From assembly GCF_006345805.1 (NCBI RefSeq), contig NC_043023.1, forward strand, positions 19,902,001-19,966,000: 64,000 nucleotides of DNA. The letters run 5' to 3'. Within the stretch, counting starts at the first letter, position 1. Each line of letters begins with the position of its first letter. Below are positions 2,858-19,135 of the stretch, piece after piece. A program made the translations under genes and the position numbers. The notes below the pieces were generated by a model. The model was not told where the DNA came from. It was given only the letters and a program-made list of their open reading frames with translations, and ran no database searches. Source of the stretch: Octopus sinensis. Taxonomy: Eukaryota.

Positions 2858-2903
2858 ATAGTTACTCCCGCCGTTTACCCGCGCTTGGTTGAATTTCTTC
2901 ACT

Positions 2904-2935
<32 letters not shown>

Positions 2936-4719
2936 CGCGTCTGTGCGGCTCGGCCGGCTACGCGATGCTCTGTTTTAATTAGACAGTCGGATTCCCCCGG
3001 TCCGTACCAGTTCCGAGTCGACCGTTCGCCGCCGGCCGAACGCCTGTCGCGCGACGACGACCGACCCCTTGCGGAGCCGAGCCGTGCGCGCACGGACGCG
3101 ACGGCGAGCCCGAAGCCGTGTCGCTCCACGGCGTCCCGTGTGTGGAATCGTTTTGTTCGCGCCCACTACGCCCCGGGCGCCCCGTATGAAACCGAGCCAC
3201 CGCAACGAACGACGGCCTGCGCACGTGCCGACGCACGAGAAGGCCACGCGCGCGGATCTGGCAGCCGCAACGACGTCCCAGCAACGCGCGCTCTTTCCGG
3301 ACCGAGAGGTCCGTAGGCGGCGGCACGCGACAGAACGCAGCGCAGCGGAGGGAGAGAACGCGTGCGTAGAAGCCGACCCGCGTTGACCGAAGGCGCGACC
3401 GCGCATCGGGGCGAAGCGGGTTGCCCGCCAACGCAGCGACGACCGTCGGAAAAATGGGGCGCACCGGGATGCCGAGTCCGACGCCAACGCTACAGCCCTG
3501 TACCGGTCCGCCGCTTCGCGTGAAGACGTGTTCCGGCGCCCGACCGACTCGGTCCTCGGAGCCAATCCTTCTTCCGAAGGTACGGATCCATTTTGCCGAC
3601 TTCCCTTACCTACATTGGCGCTATCGACAAGAGGCTGTATACCTTGGAGACCTGCTGCGGATGGTGGGTACGGACCGACTCGAGAGCTGCGATTCGTTAC
3701 GGACCCGGATTTTCCAGGGTCGCCGAGAGCGCACCGGACGCCGCCCGAGACGCGGCGCTCTACAAGTACCATATCCGTATCTCCGGACGAGCCGATTCCA
3801 CGGACGCGGTCCTTTACGAAGAAGAGAGAACTCTTCCCGGGGCTCCCGGCAACGTCTCCGGGCTCGCTTGCGTTGCCGCTGCTTCGCCGGCCGCCGGCTT
3901 CGACGACGGACGCGCTGCTAGGAAGAGCATGCCGCGTTCCCACCGACGGACGGGCACTCTCCGAGTTCGGGTTCGGGAATATTAACCCGATTCCCTTTCG
4001 ATGCGAGGCCGGCCGCGTAACTTACGTCGAACTATGGGAGTAGTACTTGTTTTCTAACGACGGATCCGGCGCCTTTCGTGGAAGCTTTCGCCCGCTTCTT
4101 AGGACCGATTGACCCGTGCTCGACCACCGTTGGCACGGAACCCTTCTCCACTTCGGTCTTCGAAGGTCTCGTTCGAATATTTGCTACTACCACCGAGATC
4201 TGCACCCGCGGTCGGCTTCACCCGGGCTCGCGCCCGCGGCTTCCATGCACGCCGCGGCGCCCTCCTACTCGACCGGGCATCGGAAAGTCGCCTCGCCGGC
4301 GATCGCGCAACCTGTCGCCCGGCCGGTCCGGCATCGGTCGCTCGCTCCAGCGCCATCCATTTTCGGGGCCGGTCGATTCGGCAGGTAAGTTGTTACACAC
4401 TCCTGAGCGGATTCCGACTTCCGTGGCCACCATCCTGCAGTCTATATCGACCGACACCCTTTCGGGGATCTAATGGGTGAAGCGTAGGGCACCTTAGCCG
4501 GACGTTCGGTTCATCCCACATCACCAGTTCTGCTTACCAAAAGTGGCCCACTTGGCACCGTGCATTCGTCGTCGCATAACGGCGGCCGCCTCCGATCGGG
4601 AGAGGAGCGGCCCGTTTCGCCCGTTCCGAGTTCGACAGTAGATCGAGGCCGTCAACGTCCCCGGGGCCTCCAGTCGTTCGCTTTACCGGACGGAATTGCG
4701 TGTCATTCTCCCGCTGGCG

Positions 4720-4762
<43 letters not shown>

Positions 4763-6002
4763 CGGCTCGATTGGTCTTTCGCCCCTACACCCGGTTCCGA
4801 TGATCGATTTGCACGTCAGAGGCGCTTCGGACTTCCACCAGAGTTTCCTCTGGCTTCGTCCCGACCGGGCGTGGATCGCCATCTTTCGGGTCCCCGGCCG
4901 CCTGCTACACCTGAGTCAGAGCGCCGTCTCGCTTTCGCTGTGCCGTCGGAGTTCGCGAAGTGAAAGGCTCCAACGACTCGCAGTCGACTGGGACTCCTCG
5001 GTCCGTGTTTCAAGACGGGTCGGGTAGGTTGCCGATGCTCGTCGCTGACCGGCAGCAGCGGGCGGCTTTTCGGGCGGGGTGTACGGCGACCGCAACGCGC
5101 GTCGCCCCCTTGCGAGGGTTCCGCGCAGTCGCGGCGCGCGGGCGGCCGCGTCGCTCACGACCTCCGAAGAGGCCGCGCGCGACTCGCTGCGTCGTTCGTG
5201 CTAAGGGCGAGGTGCGTTTGCCCGTCTCCGTCGGTTAGCCGTGCCTGCGCTTTACGTGGAGCGACGGGCCCGGTCGAGAAGAGCGCGTGGATCCCACCGA
5301 CCGCCGCTTGCGCGGCAGCGACGGGGCTCTCGTCTGCGACCTGCGGACGCCGCGCGCCTACCGGCCCGACGGGAAACGAGTCGCGACGACGGATCGGAGG
5401 GGAAGTGCGTCCGATGCCGGCGCCCCGGAAATCGAACGCCGACGAGGCGGCAGACCTCCGCCCGCGGAACGAGCGGCCGCCACCGGCGCGTTCGTCGACG
5501 ACGACGGCGCCTCGGCGGGAAGCAGCGGACTGAGTCGCCTCGCGATCGCGGTGAGCGGTCCTACCCGTTTACCCCTGGGCGGTTTCACGGTCTCTTGAAC
5601 TCTCTCTCCAAAGTTCTTTTCAACTTTCCCTCGCGGTACTTGTCGGCTATCGGGACTCGTCCCCGTATTTAGCCTTGATGGAGCTTACCACCCGCTTTGA
5701 CTGCGTTCCCAAGCAACCCGACTCTCGGGCCGATGAACACCGCCGATCGCCGCCGGCTCCGAATGGGCCTGGCACCCGCTCTGGGCAGCCCCGATCGAGG
5801 GGACTCCGAACCTAGCCGGGCGAAACGATCGACCGTGTACGACCCTTGCGCCACAGCTCTCGACGACCGTTGCGACCGACGAGATTCGGCGTTGGGCTTC
5901 TCCCGGTTCACTCGCCGTTACTTAGGGAATCCCGGTTGGTTTCTTTTCCTCCGCTTAGCGATATGCTTAAGTTCGGCGGGTAATCGCGTCCGAGTCGAGG
6001 GC
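2858..6002 (-). rRNA. 28S: 28S rRNA, 5' part, ending 13 nt upstream of the R2 insertion site
   Basis: Conserved LSU blocks, e.g. antisense tcctccgcttagcgatatgcttaag, ggtccgtgtttcaagacggg and ...atagttactcccgccgtttacccgcgc at the truncation. 5' boundary approximate. Confidence 0.97.
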
Positions 6003-6496
6003 AGCGTGAAAAAAAAGGAAGAGTTCCCCGCTGCAAAAGAGACGGCTGCCGCAGCTTGCTACCGGCGCACCACCGCTGTCGATCGGCACGAACGCTCGCA
6101 CGAAAGAGATATTCCCACAGAGCGAACGCCGAAAGACGAGACGGCGGCGGCGGCGGCAGCGGCGGCGGCGGCAGCGACGGCGACGGAGGGCGGCGGTTGC
6201 TCGGAGGGGAACGTAGAGGAGGACGCGGACGGGACGAGGGGCCTCGCCGTGTCGCCGCCGTTGTCGTTCCTGCTACTGATCATCCTTACTCCTCTGCTTC
6301 CGCTCGTCGGCGGGCTCCCTCCTCCGCAACAGCGCTTCGCAACGATGACGGTCTGGCATTACGGGAGACGGACGATCGAGCGGCGGCGGCACGCGCGCGA
6401 GATAATGCGGGCCTCGCGGCGAGCGCCGCCCTTTCCTGCGACTCCCGACTCCCCGCCGCAGCCAACGGCCGCGGCGGACTGCGTTTTCGTGTCTTG
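6003..6496 (-). other. ITS2
   Basis: GC-rich spacer between 5.8S and 28S. Confidence 0.85.
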
Positions 6497-6658
6497 ACCG
6501 CCTCTCGACCAGACGGGGCCCCGGGACGATAGGATCCCGGGGCCGCAATGTGCGTTCGAGGTGTCGATGTTCACTGAGTCCTGCAATTCGCATCAGTTCA
6601 CGCGGATAGCCGCGCTCTTCATCGACGGACGAGCCGAGTGATCCCCCGTCCAGGGTTT
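6497..6658 (-). rRNA. 5.8S: 5.8S rRNA
   Basis: Antisense ggccgcaatgtgcgttcgag...cctgcaattc...ctcttcatcgac...gagccgagtgatcc. Ends approximate. Confidence 0.95.
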
Positions 6659-7086
6659 CGGTATATTTGCTACTACTACTACATGCTACACGTACAGAAA
6701 AAGGAAAGCGGCAGCGGCCCCCGACAGGAGGCCGCCGCCGCGCGACGGAAAAATTAAAATAAAATTCGTAGGCGTCGACAGCGGAACGAAGCGCGCCACT
6801 GCCGACGCCAACGGCGAGGTAGGAAGGAAGAGAGAAATGGTCATGGAGCTCGCAAAGCGTGCAAGCCCGCGTCGTCCGAGCGCCATGAGGCGGGGCCGAC
6901 GGCCGGCAGGTGGTGCGCGGTCGGCAGCAGAGAGTGCGGCGTGTCGGCGGGCTGCCGCGACTGCTACTGCTGCGCTGTTAGAGGGCCGAAACAAGAGCAT
7001 TCGGTGGTACTCGGGCGAGGGGGCCCGGCCGCGACTTGAAGAAATTGGGCGGATCGCAAGTTTGCGTTTTCGAAAGAAGACGGCGC
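6659..7086 (-). other. ITS1
   Basis: Spacer between 18S 3' end and 5.8S. Confidence 0.85.
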
Positions 7087-7144
<58 letters not shown>

Positions 7145-7358
7145 AGCGATCGGGTTCGGTCGTCTTCTCCGGGCCATCAGAGAACGCGCCGACGACGGCG
7201 CGGAACGCCGACGACGGCGCGGAACGCCGACGACGGCGCGGAACGCCGACGACGGCGCGGAACGCCGACGACGGCGCGGAATGCCGACGACGGCGCGGAA
7301 CGCCGCCGCGCGTAAGCGGACTCGTCGGCCAGATCCGAGGACCTCACCGGACCGTTCG

Positions 7359-7401
<43 letters not shown>

Positions 7402-8071
7402 GATCGACGCGGGCTGATGACCGCGCCTACCGGGATTCCTCGTTCACGGGGTTGTTCCAGGCCCCGATCCCTATCACGGGAGGTGGTTCAGAGGTTCCCG
7501 ACCCTCTCGGGCCGGGGGAGACGCGCCCGCTGATACCTCCAGAGTAGCGCGCGTGCAGCCCCGGACATCTAAGGCATCACAGACCTGTTATCGCCCCGCC
7601 TCGTGCGGCTTTCTGCCGCCCGTCCCTCTAAGAAGCGCTGCGTTCGCCAACCGACTGGCCCGACGCGACGGCGTGCCGCCGCCGGGCTCGCGCGGGCCGA
7701 GCCGACGGGTCACCGCCGCCGCTCCGCACCGACGCCGCAACCACGCCGCGACGGCCCCCGCGAGGGGGACGGCAGCCGACGCGGCCGCGCAGCGCCGGAC
7801 GCGAAGGAGAGCGGCGGCAACGGCAAGCCCGGGCCGCGCGCGGAGCTACCGACGACGGCTTCGGCTCCGCCGCGCTACCGGAAAAGCACTAATCGACGCG
7901 CTAATTAGCAGGCCGGAGTCTCGTTCGTTATCGGAATCAACCAGACGGATCCTCCACCAACTAAGAATGGCCAGCACCCACCACCCACCGAATCGAGAAA
8001 GAGCTATCGATCTGTCAATCCTACCGTGTCCGGACCGGGTGAGTTTTCCGTGTTGAGTCAAATTAAGCCGC

Positions 8072-8115
<44 letters not shown>

Positions 8116-9736
8116 CTGTTTTGCAACCATACTCCCCCCGGAACCGACTATGGTTTCCCGCGCAGGCTCCCCGCCGGGTCATCGAAGCGAACGCCGGCAG
8201 AGCGCCAGTCGGCATCGTTTACGGTCGGAACTACGACGGTATCTGATCGTCTTCGAACCTCCGACTTTCGCTCTTGATCGAGGAAAACGTGCTTGCCACA
8301 CGCCGTCGCTGCAGTGCGTCTTGCGACGATCCAAGAATTTCACCTCTAACGTCGCAATACGAGTGGCCCGATCGCTCCCTTCGATCATTGCCTCGTCGTG
8401 AACGGAGACCGACGGATGACGCGCGGACGAGGCCATTTTCCATCATTCCATGCTTTTCGTATGCAAGCCGGCGGGGCTCGCTCTGAGCACTCTAATTTTT
8501 TCACAGTGAACGTACCGGCCGCCTCGGACACTCGGCGAAGAGCACCCTCGGAGGAACCGTGCGGGCCGAAACGACCGGGAGGTGGACGCGCTACTACCGC
8601 TAGAACGCGAACGGCGACGACGCCCAATAGCGCACCCGCCTCGTGGCTCCCGCGCGCGCCTGACCGACCCGCACCGTTGAAGGCGCAGGCGTGAAACCGG
8701 ACGCGACGCGGCGCGGGCGAAGACGAGCGCTGGACGGGGTGCCGAGTCGCGAATAGGGCCGGGAGTGCGAACGGACGACCGAAGCGGACGCGCCAGAAGC
8801 GCGCCTGCGACGGCGCCGTCGCCCCGAACGTGCTGGGGCACGTTTTCGAGACCCGAATTCCGACTACGAGCTTTTCAAACGCAACAATTTTAATATACGC
8901 TACCGGAGCTGGAATTACCGCGGCTGCTGGCACCAGACTTGCCCTCCGGTCGATTCTCGTTAACGGATTTGAAGTGTACTCATTCCGATCGCGGGGCCTC
9001 GACAGAGTCCCGCGTCGTTATTTTTCGTCACTACCTCCCCGTGCCGGGAGTGGGTAATTTGCGCGCCTGCTGTCTTCCTTGGATGTGGCAGCCGTTTCGC
9101 ATGCTCCCTCTCCGGAATCGAACCCTGATTCCCCGTTACCCGTTGCCACCACGGTCGGCACTGACCGGGCCGTCGACAGTTGATAGGGCGGACTCGCGGG
9201 GGACCCGTCGCGCGAAGGCTAGTGCGATACTAGCCCGTGCGATCGTACTGACAGTTATCCAGAGTCACCAAAATCGAAGGGCGTGAAGCCGCCGCACGCC
9301 TAAGACCCGCGCGCGGAAGGCGCGGGGCGCGGTGCGACGGCCCGTACGCGTAGGTCTCAGTCTAATATTTGCGCCGCGACCAATGCGGAAGGCCGACCGT
9401 ATCGTCGCGACCGGGAGGGACGGGCGCGGATGCGCCGCCCCCGAACCGGCCGAGCGGACGCCGGCGGCGAACGACGGCGAAGACGCGACGGCTGCCGAAC
9501 GCCGTTTTCGAGCCCGACACCCGGGTGCGACGTGCGATCGCGGCTTCGGTTGCATGTATTAGCTCTAGAATTGCCACAGTTATCCACTCTCCTCGCGGTG
9601 GAAGAATACGGTCCCGAGGATTAGGTCCGGTTCCTGAGCCATTCGCGGTTTCACCATTCGTTTACGGCATGAACTTACACTTGCATGGCTTAAGCTTTGA
9701 GACAAGCATATGACTACTGGCAGGATCAACCAGGTA
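7087..9736 (-). rRNA. 18S: 18S rRNA, unusually long (~2650 nt) with large GC-rich expansion segments
   Basis: 5' end TACCTGGTTGATCCTGCCAG at 9736; 3' end CTGCGGAAGGATCATTA at 7087; universal blocks gacgggcggtgtgtac and attaccgcggctgctgg present. Confidence 0.98.
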
Positions 9737-11049
9737 TCACCGACGTACGTTTCGAGAGAACGATGCGCGGCGGCGGCGGAAGCTCGGGAAGCAGCGCCGA
9801 CGATCGGAAACGAAAACGAGAACGAAAGGAATCGGAGGGGCCGAAAACAGGGGCACGGGCGCTCACGAGTTCGGCCGCCGTTCGTATACGCGCGCGCCTC
9901 CTCCCCGAGGAGGAAAAGAGGCGAAAACAACACGAGTCGACGCGCGAAGAAGCGTTCGCGGAGCAAAAGCGGTTTGCGATCCGACTGCCGCACACCGGGG
10001 CCGCTGCGGACGGGCTCCGGTGCGGGTCGATTTGAAGTGGGGCCGGTTACGGGCGGAAGAGGAGGAGAAGGCGAAGAAGGCCAGCGACTAGGTCGGCAGA
10101 CGAGAGGGGCAGCGGCGATTGGCGCGGGCCCGCTGCAGCTTTTAGACTCGCCCGGCGCCCTATGCGTCGGTGGTCGTCGTCGCTTCCTCCACCTGATCCT
10201 TTCGAAACGGCTGCGACGAACTGCGTCCGGACTGCGGTCAACGAGCGAATGCCATGACGGTGGTCGCCACGAAAACGACGCGCGCCAAGGCGGGGTGATG
10301 CCGGGAAGGGAAAAAAAGCTGCAGAAACGCTACGAGGCAGCGAAACCCGGAGTTGAAGCCACGGTTCTGTCTAGGGAAGAAGGGGACAGACACGGCACCG
10401 CTCTCTTTCGGAGACGCCGCGTCGCCTGTGGGGGAACGGGAAGCGACGGCTAGCCCGTCCGCCGCGCCGGCGGCGACGCAACACGAGGTCAGCGGCGTAA
10501 CCTGACCGGGTCCTCGGCTGCGAAGACGAGGCCGGGGGTCGGAAGAAAAAAAAACGCGGTAACGAGAAGCGGTTCGATTGCGAGAGGACGAACCTGCGGG
10601 CGTGAAGAGGCGGGCAGACGCGGGCGTCGAGGGAGCGCGTATGAAAGACGGGCGGTGTGGCGGCGGCGGCAGACATTCGAGGACGCGCCAGCCTTCGCCC
10701 GCCTCCGGATGTTCGGAGGCGGGCGAAGGCGGGCGAAGGCGTGCGTCGAAAGGTGCGGGTAGAACGTAGCGTCTGATAGGCGGGCGTGAAGAAGCGGACG
10801 TCCAGAGGCGGGCGAAGGCGGATGAAGGCGAGCTTCAAAAGGCGGGCGAAGGCGGGCAAACGCGGGCGTCAACGGGCGGGCGAACGCAGCGTCTGAAAGG
10901 CGGGCGGTTCGGCGGCGGAAATTCGAGGACGCGCCGGCCGTGTAGAGTCGATCTTGCACCGGCAAACGGGGAGCTAACCGTCGTCAGAAAAGGAGCTACG
11001 AGGACATCCCTCCGAGACGGTAACCTATGCCGATCAACCACAACCCTAC
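9737..11049 (-). other. 5' external transcribed spacer
   Basis: Lies between the proximal copy of the repeated promoter-like block and the 18S 5' end; contains short ggcgggcgaa repeats. Start site inferred. Confidence 0.6.
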
Positions 11050-11150
11050 ATATTAGTCTGGAACCCCTTGGGGTGCGACGGTCACCTAGAGCGTGACTAT
11101 CCAGCCGGGGCCGATCCGTTTGCTTACGGTCCCAGCACCTCCTTACTCAC
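11040..11150 (-). promoter_or_regulatory. Putative Pol I gene promoter, duplicated upstream at ~11905-11990 and ~12675-12770 (spacer promoters)
   Basis: Block 'ccccttggggtgcgacggtcaccta' occurs three times. Homology breaks at a TATGTAGGG/TATTGAGGG-like motif on the minus strand, resembling rDNA initiation sites. Confidence 0.55.
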
Positions 11151-13130
11151 GGGTCGGACCACGTAGCTGTTTTTACCCGGTGCATATCGCCACGCACACC
11201 CGGCGACTGACGGCATCGATCGCGCCTACGTCCACGTGTACGTGGGCGAGAGCGCAAGTTTCGCTTAAGCTCCACTTCAGCCTCGCCGTAGCGCGGCGGA
11301 GCTGCGAGCGAAGGCGGTAGAAGGCGGGCGCATGCCCGCCACTATCGGCCGTTGCCTGCACTGGCCGCAGTTTGTCATCTTTCGGAAATTTACGGGACGG
11401 ACCACGTCGCCGTATCGAACGCCCGCACCTCGCGACATCGGTCGCGGCTACGTCCACGCTTACGTGGGCGAGACCGCCCGCTTAAGTTCGTGCTTTCGAT
11501 TTCACGCACGGTAGGGCGGCGGAGACGCGGGCGACCGGCGCAGGCCTTCCGCCGCTACCTCGTGCTAGCCGCAGTTTGTCATCTTTCGGTATTTTACGGG
11601 ACGGACCGCGTCGCCGTATCGACCGCGTGCATCTCGTGAACGCCTTCCGGCATCGGTGGCGGCTACGTCCACGCGTACGTGGACCATACGGCGAGCTTAG
11701 GTTCGTTCTTTGGATTTCGGGCACGGTAGCGCGGCGGAGGAACGGGCGACAGGCGCAGGCCTGCCGCCAACGTCCCCGCTGCGCGTGGACTAACGGAGAA
11801 AGCGAGGCGGCGCGAAGGCGGCGGCCACCCGCCGGGCTGACGTCGTCTTAGGCTAACGTCTCGGGCATCCTGCCGAACGGTCCCGGAGACATCCACCTGC
11901 TGACTGCAAGCCCTCAATATAGTCTTGACCCCCTTGGGGTGCGACGGTCACCTATCCAGTCGGGGCCGATCCGTTTGCTCACGGTCCGAGCACCTTCTCC
12001 TACTCACGGGTCGGACCACGTCGCTGTTTTTACCCGGTGCATATCGCCACGCACTCCCGGCGACTGACGGCATCGATCGCGCCTACGTCTACGTGTACGT
12101 GGGCGAGAGCGCAAGTTTAGCTTAAGGCGCGCTTCAGCCTCGCAATAGCGCGGCGGAGTCGCGGGCGAAGGCGGGCAGAGGCGCGGGCGAAGGCGGACGC
12201 AGGCCCGCCGCTATCGGCCGATACCTGCACTGGCCGCAGTTTGTCATCTTTCGGGAATTTACGGGACGGACCACGTAGCCGTATCGAACGCCTGTACCTC
12301 GCAACATCGGTCGCGGCTACGTCCACGCGTACGTGGGCGATACCGCTCGCTTAGTTTCGTGCTCTCGATTTCACGCACGGTAGGGCAGCGGAGACTCGGG
12401 CGACCGGCGCAGGCCTGGCGCAGGCCTGCCGCTACCTAGTGCTAGACGCAGTTTGTCATCTTTCGGGATTTTACGGGACGGACCACGTCGCCGTATCGAG
12501 CGCGGGTATCTCGTGAACGCCTTCCGGCATCGGTGGCGGCTACGTCCACGTGTACGTGGGCCATACCGCGGGCTTAGGTTCGTTCTTTCGATTTCGGGCA
12601 CGGTAGGGCGGCGGAGCAACGGGCGACCGGCGCAGGCCTTCCGAACGGTCCCGGAGACATCCACCTGCCGACTGCAAGCCCTCAATATAGTCTTGACCCC
12701 CTTGGGGTGCGACGGTCACCTAGAGCGTGACTATCCAGCCGGGGCCGACCCGTAAGCATACGGGTCTGATTCCTTCGACTTACGGGTCGGACCACGTCGC
12801 TCCATTTACCCGGTGCGTATCGCCACACGCCCACGGAGACTGACGCCATCGATCGCGCCTACGTCCACGTTGACGTGGGCGAGAGCCTGATGTTCGCTTC
12901 AGCCTCACTAGATCGGGCACGGCAGCGCGGCGGAGCTCCGCGCGACTGGCGCAGGCCCGCCAATACCTGCACTGGCCGCAGTTTGTCATCTTTCGGGAAT
13001 TCACGCGACGGACCACGTCGCCCCATCGACCGCGTGTATCTCGTGACATCCTTGCGGCATAGGTCGTGGCTACGTCCAGGTGCCCGTGGGCGACACCGCG
13101 AGCTTAGGTGCGTTCGTTCGATATACCAGG
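11050..13130. repeat. IGS subrepeats (~770-865 bp period; internal ~200 bp subunit)
   Basis: 'cgcagtttgtcatctttcgg...acggaccacgtcgcc' recurs at ~11367, 11570, 12236, 12447 and 12978. Confidence 0.85.
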
Positions 13131-13189
13131 CACGTGAAATCGCCGCTTCGATCGCGTCGATAACACACACTCGTGGTCTTCGTCGTAAC

Positions 13190-13422
13190 TCAGCTCTGCT
13201 ATCGCTAGACAGTAGTAAATAGGGACAGCGGGAATATCCTCGTCGCCTTCGATCCGTTCACCTTGAGAGAGTCGAAGTTACTCCCGCCGTTTACCCGCGC
13301 TCGATACCGAGAACTTCTTCAAGCCCGTACCCTCGGCTCTGCTTTCGCTAGACAGTAGACAGGGACACGCTCCTCGCCTTCGATCCGTTCACGCGGCGCC
13401 TCGCCAATCGGACGACGATGCC
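13190..13422 (-). repeat. Two degenerate copies of the 28S R2-target region within the 3'ETS/IGS
   Basis: 13276-13301 is identical to 2860-2885; 13320-13367 matches 15343-15390 at 43/48. Confidence 0.9.
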
Positions 13423-13874
13423 GAGAACTCGCCGCTTCGACAACCCGCACTCGCGGTGTCCGCCGCGTACTACTCAGACTCTGTCCGTCGCTGCGCGAGA
13501 CCGGGGCTCGGGCCCGATGCCGACGAGCAACAACTCGTCGGCGGTGCAGGAGGTTACGAACGGCCGGAATGCCGCATGCTGGCGCCACAACCCCGTGTAC
13601 GCGCGCACTAAGCAGGAGGTGCCGTTTCTTCCACTTCTCACTTAAACGAACCCGCAACGGAGCGCGCGCTGCTAAGCCGATGCGCGCTCGATTCGGCGGC
13701 CGAGACGAAGGCGGTTACGGCGACGACTACTACCGCGCGCCGAGTCGATCGCCGCAGACAAGACAAGACACAACGCAACGCAACACTTCGTAACTCCGAC
13801 TCCCAGCCGCAACACTTTCGCCATCTTTCGCACCTCCTCCTGCACCTGCTTCTCCGCCTCGAAGGGGCGGATCG

Positions 13875-14529
13875 TGTCATTCGCGAGAAGAGACTCAATA
13901 GATCGCAGTGTGGTAGCTGCTCTACTAAGCACGTCACTCCGAACGGCAAGTCGGGTCGTATGCAAGCGATCCCTTTCGTCTCGATCTCTTCAAACTAGTC
14001 GGGGCGGGACGACGAGCAGACGACTACGGCGCGAACGCCGCAGTCGCCGCCGCGTCCCCGAATGGCAATTCCGCCGGCGACGCTGCCGCTCGCCGCGCGA
14101 ACGCGACGGGCGGACGGCGAACGCGACGGGCGGACGGCGAACGCGACGGGCGGACGGCGAACGCGACGGGCGGACGGCGAACGCCGAGCTAAGGCATGCG
14201 CCTTGAGGTTGAGACGCTTTTGGAAAACAACTCGGGTCCGGCTACGGTTCCGGCTTAGAGGCGTTCAGCCGTTATCGCTCAGAGGCAGCCTGGCACCACC
14301 GCTCTATCGAGCGAGCGCGCAAACCGTTGCTCTGATCCCGCGGTACCTCTCGTACTGGACGGGATAGCCGTAGCCGAGTTGACGTTGCCGACGCCCGCCT
14401 AAGGTCGGCCGGAGAAACGCCGGCGGCACGGCCAGGACGGACGACGCGCGAGCGCGCCGCCGCCTCGACCGCACGCCGAGTACCCCGACGCGACTCGGGG
14501 CGCCGCGTACGCGCGATGCATCGGTAGGA

Positions 14530-14576
<47 letters not shown>

Positions 14577-15293
14577 GTTAGTGGGTGAACAATCCAACGC
14601 TTTGCGAATTCTGCTTCGCAATGATAGGAAGAGCCGACATCGAAGGATAAAAAAGCGACGTCGCTGCGAACGCTTGGCCGCCACAAGCCAGTTATCCCTG
14701 TGATAACTTTTCTGACACCTCTCGGCGGACGCATAGCTCGCCGCTGTAATTTGGAAAGGATCGATGGGCCACGCTTTCGCGGTCCGTATTCGTACTGAAA
14801 ATCGAGATCGAGCGAGCTTTTGCCCTTTTGCTCGACGTGTGGTTTCCGTCCACGCTGGGCTCGCCTTGGGACACCTGCGTTACCGTTTGACAGACGTACC
14901 GCCCCAGTCAAACTCCCCGACCGACACTGTTCTCGACTAAGGGTCGCGCATCGGCTGCGCCGGCGCCCGCAAAGGCGCCCGACATGCACCGCGCGCTTCG
15001 CACCAGATAATGAACCACCGCTCGGCGACGGCCCGATCCCTTCTCCATCGAGTGAGCGAGGAAACTACGGAAGTGGCGGTTTTTCATCGTCGCAAACGCG
15101 CGCGACACCCCGACGTCGAACGCGCTTAGCCGACGGCGCCCACGGCGCACCGACGAGACCGACCGCCGCACGCGAAGCGCGACGGTGCGGACAACGAACA
15201 GCACGCCAGCGCGCCGCCGGTGACGGCAGCGCCCGGCGCGGGGCAACGCGAATGCTACCGCCTATGCTACGCCTACCGTGTGCCCTCACAAAA

Positions 15294-15333
<40 letters not shown>

Positions 15334-15340
15334 CGATCCG

Positions 15341-15375
<35 letters not shown>

Positions 15376-15410
15376 CAGTAGATAGGGACAGTGGGAATCT
15401 CGTTGATCCG

Positions 15411-15450
<40 letters not shown>
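13875..15450 (-). rRNA. 28S: 28S rRNA, 3' part, starting exactly at the R2 site (TAGCCAAATGCCTCGTCATC)
   Basis: Peptidyl-transferase region blocks (gagccgacatcgaagg, ctcacgacggtctaaacccagctc) and 3'-terminal tcaatagatcgcag. 3' boundary approximate. Confidence 0.97.
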
Positions 15451-15726
15451 TCTAAGTGAGACTAAATAGTGTCTCCTTCCCTTTATTTAACGTGGGTGGT
15501 CCCACACTGTCCAGCCAGGTCCCAGCTTGTGTTAATCTTAAAAGAAAAAAAGTACAAAAAAAAACAAAAATCTACCTAAGTAGTGGGGATCTAAAACTAA
15601 CAGCGAAGCGGGTGCTTTTTCGATGGGCAGAAGAAGCTGAAAGTCCAATCCGGGTTGTTATTTTAATTTTTCTTATGTTTTAATTTTAAGCTCATATCGA
15701 GGCACGGCCCCCAAACCATGCCACCT

Positions 15727-15757
<31 letters not shown>

Positions 15758-17422
15758 ATTGAGGGGCATCCTACACGCCAGCCTCTCGGTCCTCGAAAAA
15801 AAAAAAAAAAAAAGAAATTTTGAGGACTTCATCGAGGGGGTTTTATGTGCAGGATCCGATAGAAACTATCAGGGTCGAGTTAGGTATGTGAGCCATTAGT
15901 ATTACCTGCAGTGTAAATGGCTCTATACAACTGCAGGAAGCGTTGATATCGGCCCAACGTGGTTGGGCAACACGCTCGGCCTGGCTTGGAGACCCGCTCT
16001 TTTGCCCACAAGCCACCATCTTATACGGCCCCTGGCAACCGTGTGTTTCGTAACTTTTCGTTAAGGAATTGGACTTCGCGGCATTTTCCAAGAGTACGTG
16101 GAAGAAAATCAAGAGTACAAGAGTAAGGAGTCAAACCCTGCAGACCGTAAGCAAACATCCTCCCTAGCCAACCGAAATCCGCATACCAAGCCAAATACCC
16201 TGCAACAGTCCGCGAAGGGCTCAATACTGATGGTTTACCCGTCAGTTTACCCGGCATCCTCGCCGCCCTTCTCGAGTGAGGTACTGGATGCTGGCCAAAA
16301 GTGAGTCTACTCCCACATTAACATGTGTGAGCCACAACAATCTGGCGTCAGGAGACAAAGTCGTGAACCACCCAGGGCTCATTATTGACGGTTTACCCGT
16401 CAGTTGACTGGCTCCCGTAGTGAGGCCAAAAGTGAGTCCACTCCCACATTAACATGTGTGAGCCACAACAATCTGGCGTCAGGAGACAATGTCGTGAACC
16501 ACCCAGGGCTCATTATTGACGGTTTACCCGTCAGTTGACTGGCTCCCGTAGTGAGGCCAAAAGTGAGTCCACTCCCACATTAACATGTGTGAGCCACAAC
16601 AATCTGGCGTCAGGAGACAATGTCGTGAGCCACCCAGGGACAGCAGGGACAGCAACCTTCACGAGGCGCTAACTTTTGGCGAGATAAGAGGCAGGATGGA
16701 AGCACCCCATCCCTACCTCGCCCCGTCAGCAGCCCAATCCGGAGAGCGAACCCACCCGTTCTGACCTTGGCCGTCCGTGGGCGCCGCCCCGTGAAATTCT
16801 AATATAGAAATAGGGGGCCTTCACACCACACCGATGCCAGGTAGTGGCCGATCCGGATGAGCAGGAGGCCGACAAGCGCAACCACGACCAACCAGCAGGG
16901 TATCATCCCACTCTGCACACGATAATCCTCCACACTGCTTGGTCCCCACCAATTAATTGGAACCGCTATGGGGGAAGGACACATTTAGTTAGTCTGCGGA
17001 CGGGTTGGCGCCCGCAAGGCCAATAACGGCTTGCGTCCCACCCGCAGACGTAAGCTCTTAAACCACGACAAGGTAGTGTCCCTGTGGGTGAATCCTGGCA
17101 GTGCATCCATCTCCCGGGTTAAACCCGGCAGATCATAACATACCAGACAAACTTGATGGTGCATCCACCCTCTCACCTCGCTGCCAATGTTCCAATCGGA
17201 CACTGCAGGTGTATATCCCCCTATACACCACCCACACCGATGTTCCTATAGGACACCGCAGGTGCCCCCAACCGCTGGATCTTTTCTGCCCCCAACGAAA
17301 CTCGGTGGGGTGGGGACAAATCGTATCAAGACGTGTTATTAGTGTAAGTTCACCCCAAGTGGATGAGCAGTAGGAACACCCACCCATTGCAAGGTTCGTG
17401 GGTCATAACCATCAAGCCCCAC
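15451..17422 (-). mobile_element. 5'-truncated, decayed R2-like retroelement (3' end with long structured 3' UTR)
   Basis: Its 3' junction lies precisely at the canonical R2 nick site of 28S. Fragmentary peptides (ARIH.., VPINWWG) only weakly recall the R2 C-terminus; no intact ORF. Confidence 0.65.
16294..16639. repeat. 131-bp tandem repeat, ~2.6 copies
   Basis: 'gccaaaagtgagtc..ctcccacattaacatgtg' starts at 16294, 16425 and 16556. Confidence 0.95.
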
Positions 17423-17426
17423 TTAA

Positions 17427-17497
17427 GGTGGCTACTACCACCTGACTTCTATCTTTCAGAAAGTCATGAAGCCATTCTCCCAGTTTTCCAACTATGC
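17427..17497 (-). pseudogene. LINE RT fragment, proximal piece (IVGKLGEWLHDFLKDRSQVVVA)
   Basis: Peptide type that normally lies just upstream of the SGVPQG motif found at 2843. Confidence 0.85.
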
Positions 17498-18679: not shown

Positions 18680-19135
18680 ACCACTCAAACGGTGATCCAG
18701 CATCGGTCCGCTCACCGCTGCCATCCGATGATACGAAAAAAACAATCAGTCTCCCGGGCGCCCGTTCATTCGACGAGGTGTAAACCATCGTCTGTTTAGG
18801 ATCAGCGATTCTGTTCGGAGAGACTTGCTTAAGAGAACAGCTACCACACTGCGGTGTGTTGCGTCTATTCTTGCGGAAGACATGATCCCGCATCGGAGGC
18901 GTGGTGTAGCTCGGTGTCAAGAACTTAGTATCATCCGACGACATCGGTGGCGTGAATCACTCGGGAAACGATCAAAACTGAACGGTGCCGGAAAAGATGG
19001 CTCTAAGCGCCAGAATATGCATCCTCTTGTTTCATGACGTCAAGATGTCTGTCTGTCGGTCTAAGTCTCTTTCGGAGTTTAAGCAAAGCTGGGGCATCCT
19101 CGCCGCCCTTCTCGAGTGAGGTACTGGATGCTGGC
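18680..19135 (+). pseudogene. Diverged 28S-derived mosaic fragment, inverted relative to the rDNA unit
   Basis: 18811-18853 matches the reverse complement of 13904-13946 at 37/43; shorter matches to other 28S regions. Confidence 0.6.

Follow-up and report, generated by a model that had tools for sequence, protein, structure and literature searches.

R2 is conventionally assigned one target per rDNA unit, and this target lies within an essential gene. An rDNA unit of Octopus sinensis, located in a 64,000-nucleotide stretch of contig NC_043023.1 (positions 19,902,001 to 19,966,000; the whole stretch is referred to as the window), raises the question of whether the spacer behind the 28S gene holds a second R2 target and, if so, whether that target can be cut. 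An earlier note on this DNA had described two degenerate copies of the 28S segment around the R2 site in the spacer, and had proposed either that they offer a bindable but uncleavable target in each repeat, which could titrate R2, or that they are a scar of R2 cleavage and repair. Our analysis favors, at a probability of roughly 0.6, a different reading: the spacer carries a second R2 target of 28S origin, which is likely self-renewed whenever cut copies are repaired off the 28S gene, and which likely acts as a de facto R2 sink. Positions in the target are numbered relative to the R2 bottom-strand nick throughout.

Results

Layout of the window

The window contains one rDNA unit in minus-strand orientation. 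The 3' part of the 28S gene (15450-13869) is followed by the spacer, which extends to 9737, and then by the 18S, the 5.8S and the 5' part of the 28S gene, which terminates at 2859. The relevant features are the following:

15451..17427, minus strand: R2-dependent, non-coding element (SIDE-like), inserted at the real site in the 28S
13869..15450, minus strand: real 28S gene, 3' part, starting at its own R2 site
13320..13418, minus strand: copy 2, colinear degenerate 28S +12..+109, lacking the upstream half and the cut site
13302..13319, minus strand: linker, the leftover of a spacer subrepeat, of which about 60-90 bases are gone that are still present in older copies
13261..13301, minus strand: copy 1, upstream half, equal to 28S -41..-1 of the R2 target (by sequence alignment)
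13282..13294, minus strand: R2 upstream motif (RUM, -34..-22), same as in the 28S (motif as defined in PMC10499050)
13260..13266, minus strand: nick motif (RASIN, -6..+1), with T-5 -> C in the window copy; the common allele fits the consensus
13193..13260, minus strand: downstream half of copy 1, a degenerate version of 28S +37..+93, 51/57 bases, with insertions
13131..13192, minus strand: remnant of the 141-bp spacer subrepeat, which in other units follows the target copy as an array
2859..2960, minus strand: upstream flank of the real R2 site, with the orphon terminus at -14

The unit as a whole is an orphon (2859-17427), that is, a complete rDNA unit that was opened at its R2 site and begins with the short R2-dependent element; its other end, at -14 of the next R2 site, adjoins the known ribozyme cut at -13 (PMC3774820). 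As the orphon flanks read as consecutive parts of one LINE reverse transcriptase, the unit looks like a single 14.6-kb insertion. Elsewhere in the window, the 28S 3' end recurs in inverted, degenerate form (72%) at 18774-18888, and positions 32400-59300 hold about four occurrences of a multi-kilobase higher-order repeat with 42-, 63- and 107-bp satellites.

The spacer copies derive from the R2 region of the 28S gene

Comparison of the spacer with the genic parts of the unit by blastn gave three strong matches, all of them to the R2 region. The 26/26 identity with the 28S upstream flank that had been reported for 13276-13301 was reproduced on the minus strand, both by blastn and by alignment, and was found to extend to the nick position, with 39/42 bases matching without a gap over -41..+1. 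Equally, the jump at the nick was recovered with its junction at 13260/13261, where copy 1 fuses 28S -41..-1 to 28S +37, such that 36 bases are absent; the break may be placed at 0 or +1, because the junction T is compatible with either side. Copy 2 (13320-13418), which the earlier note had taken to be scrambled, turned out to be colinear with 28S +12..+109 (77/98 bases). The two copies reached local scores of 60 and 84; across 300 shuffled versions of the spacer, the highest values were 31 and 30. The idea that the 141-bp subrepeats are themselves decayed target copies was rejected, as 322, 665 and 55 of 1,000 shuffles reached the score.

The window allele is not the typical one. Among the copies with full spacing between upstream motif and nick, 10 of 11 read TTCAGG/T, and the window with its T-5 -> C change is the exception. 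The common allele, represented by L010, agrees with the 28S at 39/42 bases, differing at -15, -14 and -4 (A-4 -> C), and has no gap.

The spacer copy is widespread

A genome search with the spacer copy returned at least 87 matches, from 40 scored candidates out of 93. When the 28S 3' ends of the genome were located by pattern (n=26), 21 led into the spacer copy, four stopped before it and one entered an older spacer that has its own target copy. For the sequencing runs, the commonest allele (L010) served as the query, and a threshold of at least 0.6 of its words was reached in 20 of the 24 listed runs, from 11 studies; the seven runs that were compared are near-identical to this genome. Single contigs in runs X2 and X9 cross the junction with zero differences, and run X12 provides a single contig with one 3-base gap away from the junction. 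As to bulk rDNA units, the summed contig depth in run X16, which is not a copy number, was about 150,000-220,000 on the copy versus 92,000-195,000 on the 28S end, and depths of the same order on both rule out a rare variant. Uniqueness of the copy to this orphon was thus rejected, and the suggestion that such a target occurs in each repeat is borne out by the 28S ends, the runs and the contigs spanning the junction. Judging from the genome and run counts, the L010 allele would represent the bulk spacer allele. A search of JGI metagenomes for the same deletion form gave 0 matches. Run X16 also contains two loose ends, at -7 and -2, each in a single contig.

Predicted cleavability of the spacer target

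The region of the R2 target bound by the protein spans -38..+1, and the silkmoth R2 protein requires the motif at -34..-22, its correct distance from the nick, and T-6, T-5, A-3 and T+1; changes at +6..+37 impair neither its nicking nor its priming, changes of A-4 are tolerated, and a T-5 change severely lowers nicking (PMC10499050). Lineage-A R2 proteins remain bound upstream and place the second-strand nick at -2 (PMC12180492); the bases that they recognize differ somewhat, and their priming uses a downstream match of 4-5 bases (PMC12222951). The octopus genome encodes lineage-A R2 frames, whose best PDB match is R2Tg (E 2.4e-84), with an RT identified by Pfam and with three zinc-finger motifs and one Myb motif read by eye.

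In both the window copy and the common allele, the RUM at -34..-22 is identical to that of the 28S. The motif-to-nick spacing is as in the 28S (ungapped -41..+1) in 11 of 29 copies, the common allele included. The nick motif T-6 T N A N N T+1, a consensus that holds for the lineage-D (silkmoth) protein and of which a lineage-A protein such as that of the octopus reads other bases (PMC12222951), is present in the common allele as the sole match within L010, whereas the rDNA of the window lacks any consensus match because its own copy has T-5 -> C. The downstream match of 4-5 bases used for priming is absent, T+1 being the only base common to copy and 28S. Extrapolation from the silkmoth and lineage-A rules therefore predicts nicking with poor priming for the common allele. 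The description of the target as bindable but uncleavable may suit the window's own allele with its T-5 -> C change; it is not supported for the family, whose common allele fits the consensus and which has R2-family ends at the nick, as detailed below.

R2-family elements end in the spacer copy

The window element at the real site is 1,977 bases long and non-coding, its longest stop-free stretch amounting to 98 aa, and its family has 19 5' matches and 10 3' matches in the genome. A 3' motif that this family shares with coding R2 copies located 45 R2-family ends. A total of 49 3' ends, drawn from all collected loci, were classified by script according to the sequence that follows, which was the 28S downstream flank in 28, the deleted spacer copy in 7, another element in 4 and other sequence in 10. 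R2-family ends are thus present at the mimic, where the earlier note had suggested looking for R2 insertions. The seven ends represent four distinct junctions (C10, C14, C9332 and a C18/C9730 group of four), which are ragged, lie 0-5 bases from the nick and in three cases retain upstream bases. At C14 (L031), a 1,670-base family member has both ends inside the spacer copy, with the copy's marker bases on either side. The three other junctions are not clean insertions: one terminates an element tandem, and two have real 28S on the 5' side, which calls for a double cut or later recombination. Since crossing-over from the real site would have retained +1..+36, we infer that the ends arose at the spacer copy. 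One of the 28 ends followed by 28S flank, that of C7 (L105), has spacer subrepeats from +110 onward; it probably marks an element inserted into a spacer copy that was still intact, but could also be a crossover product.

An HDV-like core pattern, with pairings assigned by eye, was recognized in L023 and L048, both of the window-element family, and in full R2 copies. Rfam returned no hit for an HDV-like ribozyme at gathering score in the window.

All four spacer junctions lie in copies with older bases, and zero insertions were found in the present common allele (A-4 -> C). This is in line with a former target that is now shut, in which case the fixed allele, with A-4 changed to C and the downstream half lost, would have spread by resisting the local R2 and would still be bound, yet no longer cut. 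The break of T-5 in the window allele, entailing a severe nicking loss with the silkmoth protein (PMC10499050), and the downstream match of 4-5 bases on which lineage-A proteins draw (PMC12222951) point in the same direction. On the other hand, the A-4 changes tolerated in the silkmoth assay (PMC10499050) argue against a block at this base, and three separate nick-spanning deletions are found among the copies that group with the common allele. We consider closure of the site distinctly improbable.

Deletions cluster at the predicted cut

Thirty candidate copies were collected by script, of which L087 was dropped as not being a spacer copy. The remaining 29, a biased sample because the copies studied are all dispersed orphons and most of them R2-bearing, comprise 11 with full spacing (10 of bulk type plus the window), one that bears an element, 14 (11 events) with an indel of at least 2 bases at the cut, and three lacking one base, which may be a read error. 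The indels across the cut vary widely in length. We further compiled 22 distinct deletions of at least 5 bases within -426..+96, taken by hand from pairwise alignments and including some that are lineage differences. Seven of these 22 overlap -4..-2, versus a mean of 0.72 upon random placement, and seven were reached in 1/500,000 trials; the any-point version of the test gave 0.00025 (20-event list). A tree of 22 copies, calculated with the junction excluded, placed three deletion alleles separately among the bulk-type copies, with the caveat that one row, L006, is long and two others are short. As far as the deletion is concerned, the clustering supports the second proposal of the earlier note, a scar of R2 cleavage and repair. 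Simple repeats upstream of the spacer target are likewise indel-rich.

Several deletions begin in the loop of the helix-69 hairpin, with microhomology, and both the microhomologies and the hairpin may help to make indels at the cut. The spacer copy lies about 570-650 bases beyond the 28S end and has kept the helix-69 stem. Taken together, these features could be accommodated by a role unrelated to R2, in 3' spacer processing, termination or RNA structure, with the indels originating from the hairpin. Folding of the spacer copy was no better than that of shuffles (z 0.39 and -0.15), and a role of this kind would leave the R2-family ends at the nick unexplained, which makes it, in our view, very remote from the likely course of events.

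Older copies record the history of the insert

Spacer-flanked pieces that are overall 94-98% identical to the 28S are preserved in two loci. L105 has +2..+110 at 107/109, followed by a subrepeat, and -90..-6 at 80/85, preceded by a subrepeat; L077 has +14..+110 at 98%, with subrepeats on both sides. A target-site duplication around the L077 piece had been considered and was dropped, as L105 shows the flanks to be ordinary subrepeats. In L033, L079 and L080, both copies stand at 85-90%, copy 1 extends to about -95 and the nick deletion is already present; later copies are devoid of -95..-42. Chimeras of gene and spacer copy (L068, L072, L075 and L105) indicate that exchange between the two occurs.

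An older spacer family (L148-L155; C10:105.05 Mb and others) has a 28S end that is about 92% identical in conserved parts. It carries an upstream target copy (about -120..-1) at 536 bases from the gene end, with a score of 68 versus at most 37 in 500 shuffles, and the rest of its spacer aligns with the present one at chance level. The junctions of this family vary from copy to copy, and the target copy is in tandem in L155. The presence of a separate target copy in an older family suggests that the target was captured, or refreshed, more than once.

Discussion

The simplest reading of the allele series is that a spacer subrepeat received a near-perfect copy of the 28S over about -95..+110, which was then duplicated. 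R2 cuts and subsequent end-joining would have deprived copy 2 of the site and copy 1 of +1..+36; the upstream side would later have been cut back by deletion to -41, approximately the footprint of the protein. Breaks may sometimes have been repaired off the real 28S, whereby the upstream core would be refreshed, and concerted evolution would then spread the refreshed allele. With one base of downstream match versus the 4-5 used, nicking would likely be easier than priming, which fits the ragged 3' junctions.

Refreshment from the gene would account for a 26-base core that is unchanged while other parts of the same insert have drifted (far-upstream 42/56, +37..+93 49/57, copy 2 77/98). The contrast between the intact core and the drifted, downstream gapped remainder would also be expected if the host kept a cuttable spacer target under selection, either diverting R2 or obtaining harmless breaks for copy-number recovery. 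The fixed allele has retained the full geometry despite at least 11 damaging origins, and damaged alleles did not take over; the surviving -41..+1 is close to the bound region -38..+1 (PMC10499050); the older spacer family has an upstream target copy as well, similarly far from the 28S end; and rDNA expansion in the fly is driven by R2 breaks (PMC11700107). Against selection, other spacer blocks are equally invariant, and the chance of three substitutions missing all 17 critical bases is about 0.2. Moreover, copy 2 of the common allele contains 24 bases (+61..+84) that are just as perfect as the core, although they have no known role for R2. The insert region +60..+85 is presumably the position of the insect R1 site; a second element targeting it was considered and rejected, since the seven unpaired 28S fragments contained zero element junctions there, including +61..+84, where collapsed arrays could hide one. 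Finally, the real site still receives most insertions (27/49 rows vs 8). We therefore regard a selected decoy or domesticated cut site as rather unlikely, and we are just as doubtful about its extension to an R2 sink of the rDNA unit's own, maintained by selection and captured at least twice in the lineage. A decoy role of the copy would be conceivable as a sink, not as an uncuttable sponge.

The spacer target shares features with several known systems; target rules, off-target use, junction duplications (PMC3774820) and SIDEs (PMC3414825) have all been described. As in the canonical 28S target (PMC10499050), the RUM, a spacing of 15 bases, T-6, T-5, A-3 and T+1 are all present in the common allele, and R2-family 3' ends occur at the same nick. 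Unlike the canonical target, the spacer copy is devoid of +1/+2..+36/+37, matches over a single base on the downstream side, and can take up an insertion that spares the 28S gene. A silkmoth non-28S insertion and pseudo-28S hits (PMC10499050, PMC12222951) similarly make use of look-alikes in which the upstream motif is kept, but those sites are scattered and rare, whereas the spacer site is fixed in the rDNA unit at about one per gene. In a butterfly, some R2 insertions are likewise reported as not limited to the 28S (PMC10257491). Duplicated 28S bases at R2 5' junctions (PMC3774820) are comparable as short target copies made by R2 that later drift; they mostly measure 13-28 bases (one case +113) and sit at the element 5' end within the gene, in contrast to the 200-base piece in the spacer, which is usually element-free. 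The octopus element of 1.7-2.0 kb resembles the Drosophila R2 SIDEs (PMC3414825) in its R2-like ends, its location at the R2 site, its lack of a long reading frame and its putative HDV-like core, and differs from them in being much longer, in its mollusc host and in its occurrence in the spacer copy as well as in the gene. We found no literature report of a used R2 target fixed in an rDNA spacer, although subscription papers, Repbase and supplements could hold a precedent; the available portions of PMC10946416, PMC13580325, PMC10257491 and PMC11447458 contain no such spacer target.

Each octopus rDNA unit would accordingly offer R2 a second, dispensable target that has already been cut and filled, and the dispersed orphons record the history of this target stepwise. 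Host tolerance of R2 and host influence on where R2 lands thereby become testable, and the allele series amounts to a natural mutational scan of the target rules of lineage A, which is used in gene insertion tools. If the target is merely self-perpetuating, it would still represent R2 reshaping the spacer and driving gene-spacer exchange. If it were a selected sink after all, R2 could cut and integrate with no loss of a 28S gene, which would help to explain long-term coexistence, and hosts might perhaps exploit R2 breaks for the restoration of rDNA copy number (PMC11700107).

Some further observations concern R2-family sequences outside the window. The region C9332:44000-72000 (L140, L065, L066) consists of tandem coding R2 pieces and short elements and ends in a spacer target copy. 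Two R2-family 3' ends, at C10:40159367 and C26:2873535, each meet five bases that resemble the 28S downstream flank, and the SINE-like repeats in which they lie are similar. In L122 (C4) and L124 (C6), 28S sequence starting at the R2 site runs about 25-60 bases downstream into sequence resembling the R2 ribozyme core, and these loci may represent R2 5' ends at which downstream bases were duplicated. A different, uninserted 28S is present in L097-L100 (C8697, C10266, C12603 and C12762) and is likely derived from a co-sequenced organism. Among the dispersed 28S sites observed in the octopus, nearly all carry an R2 or SIDE-like element, L086 being the sole empty one with a long upstream flank; the coexistence of at least two coding R2 lineages and the short family, together with the near-complete occupancy of these sites, suggests that R2 drives orphon formation.
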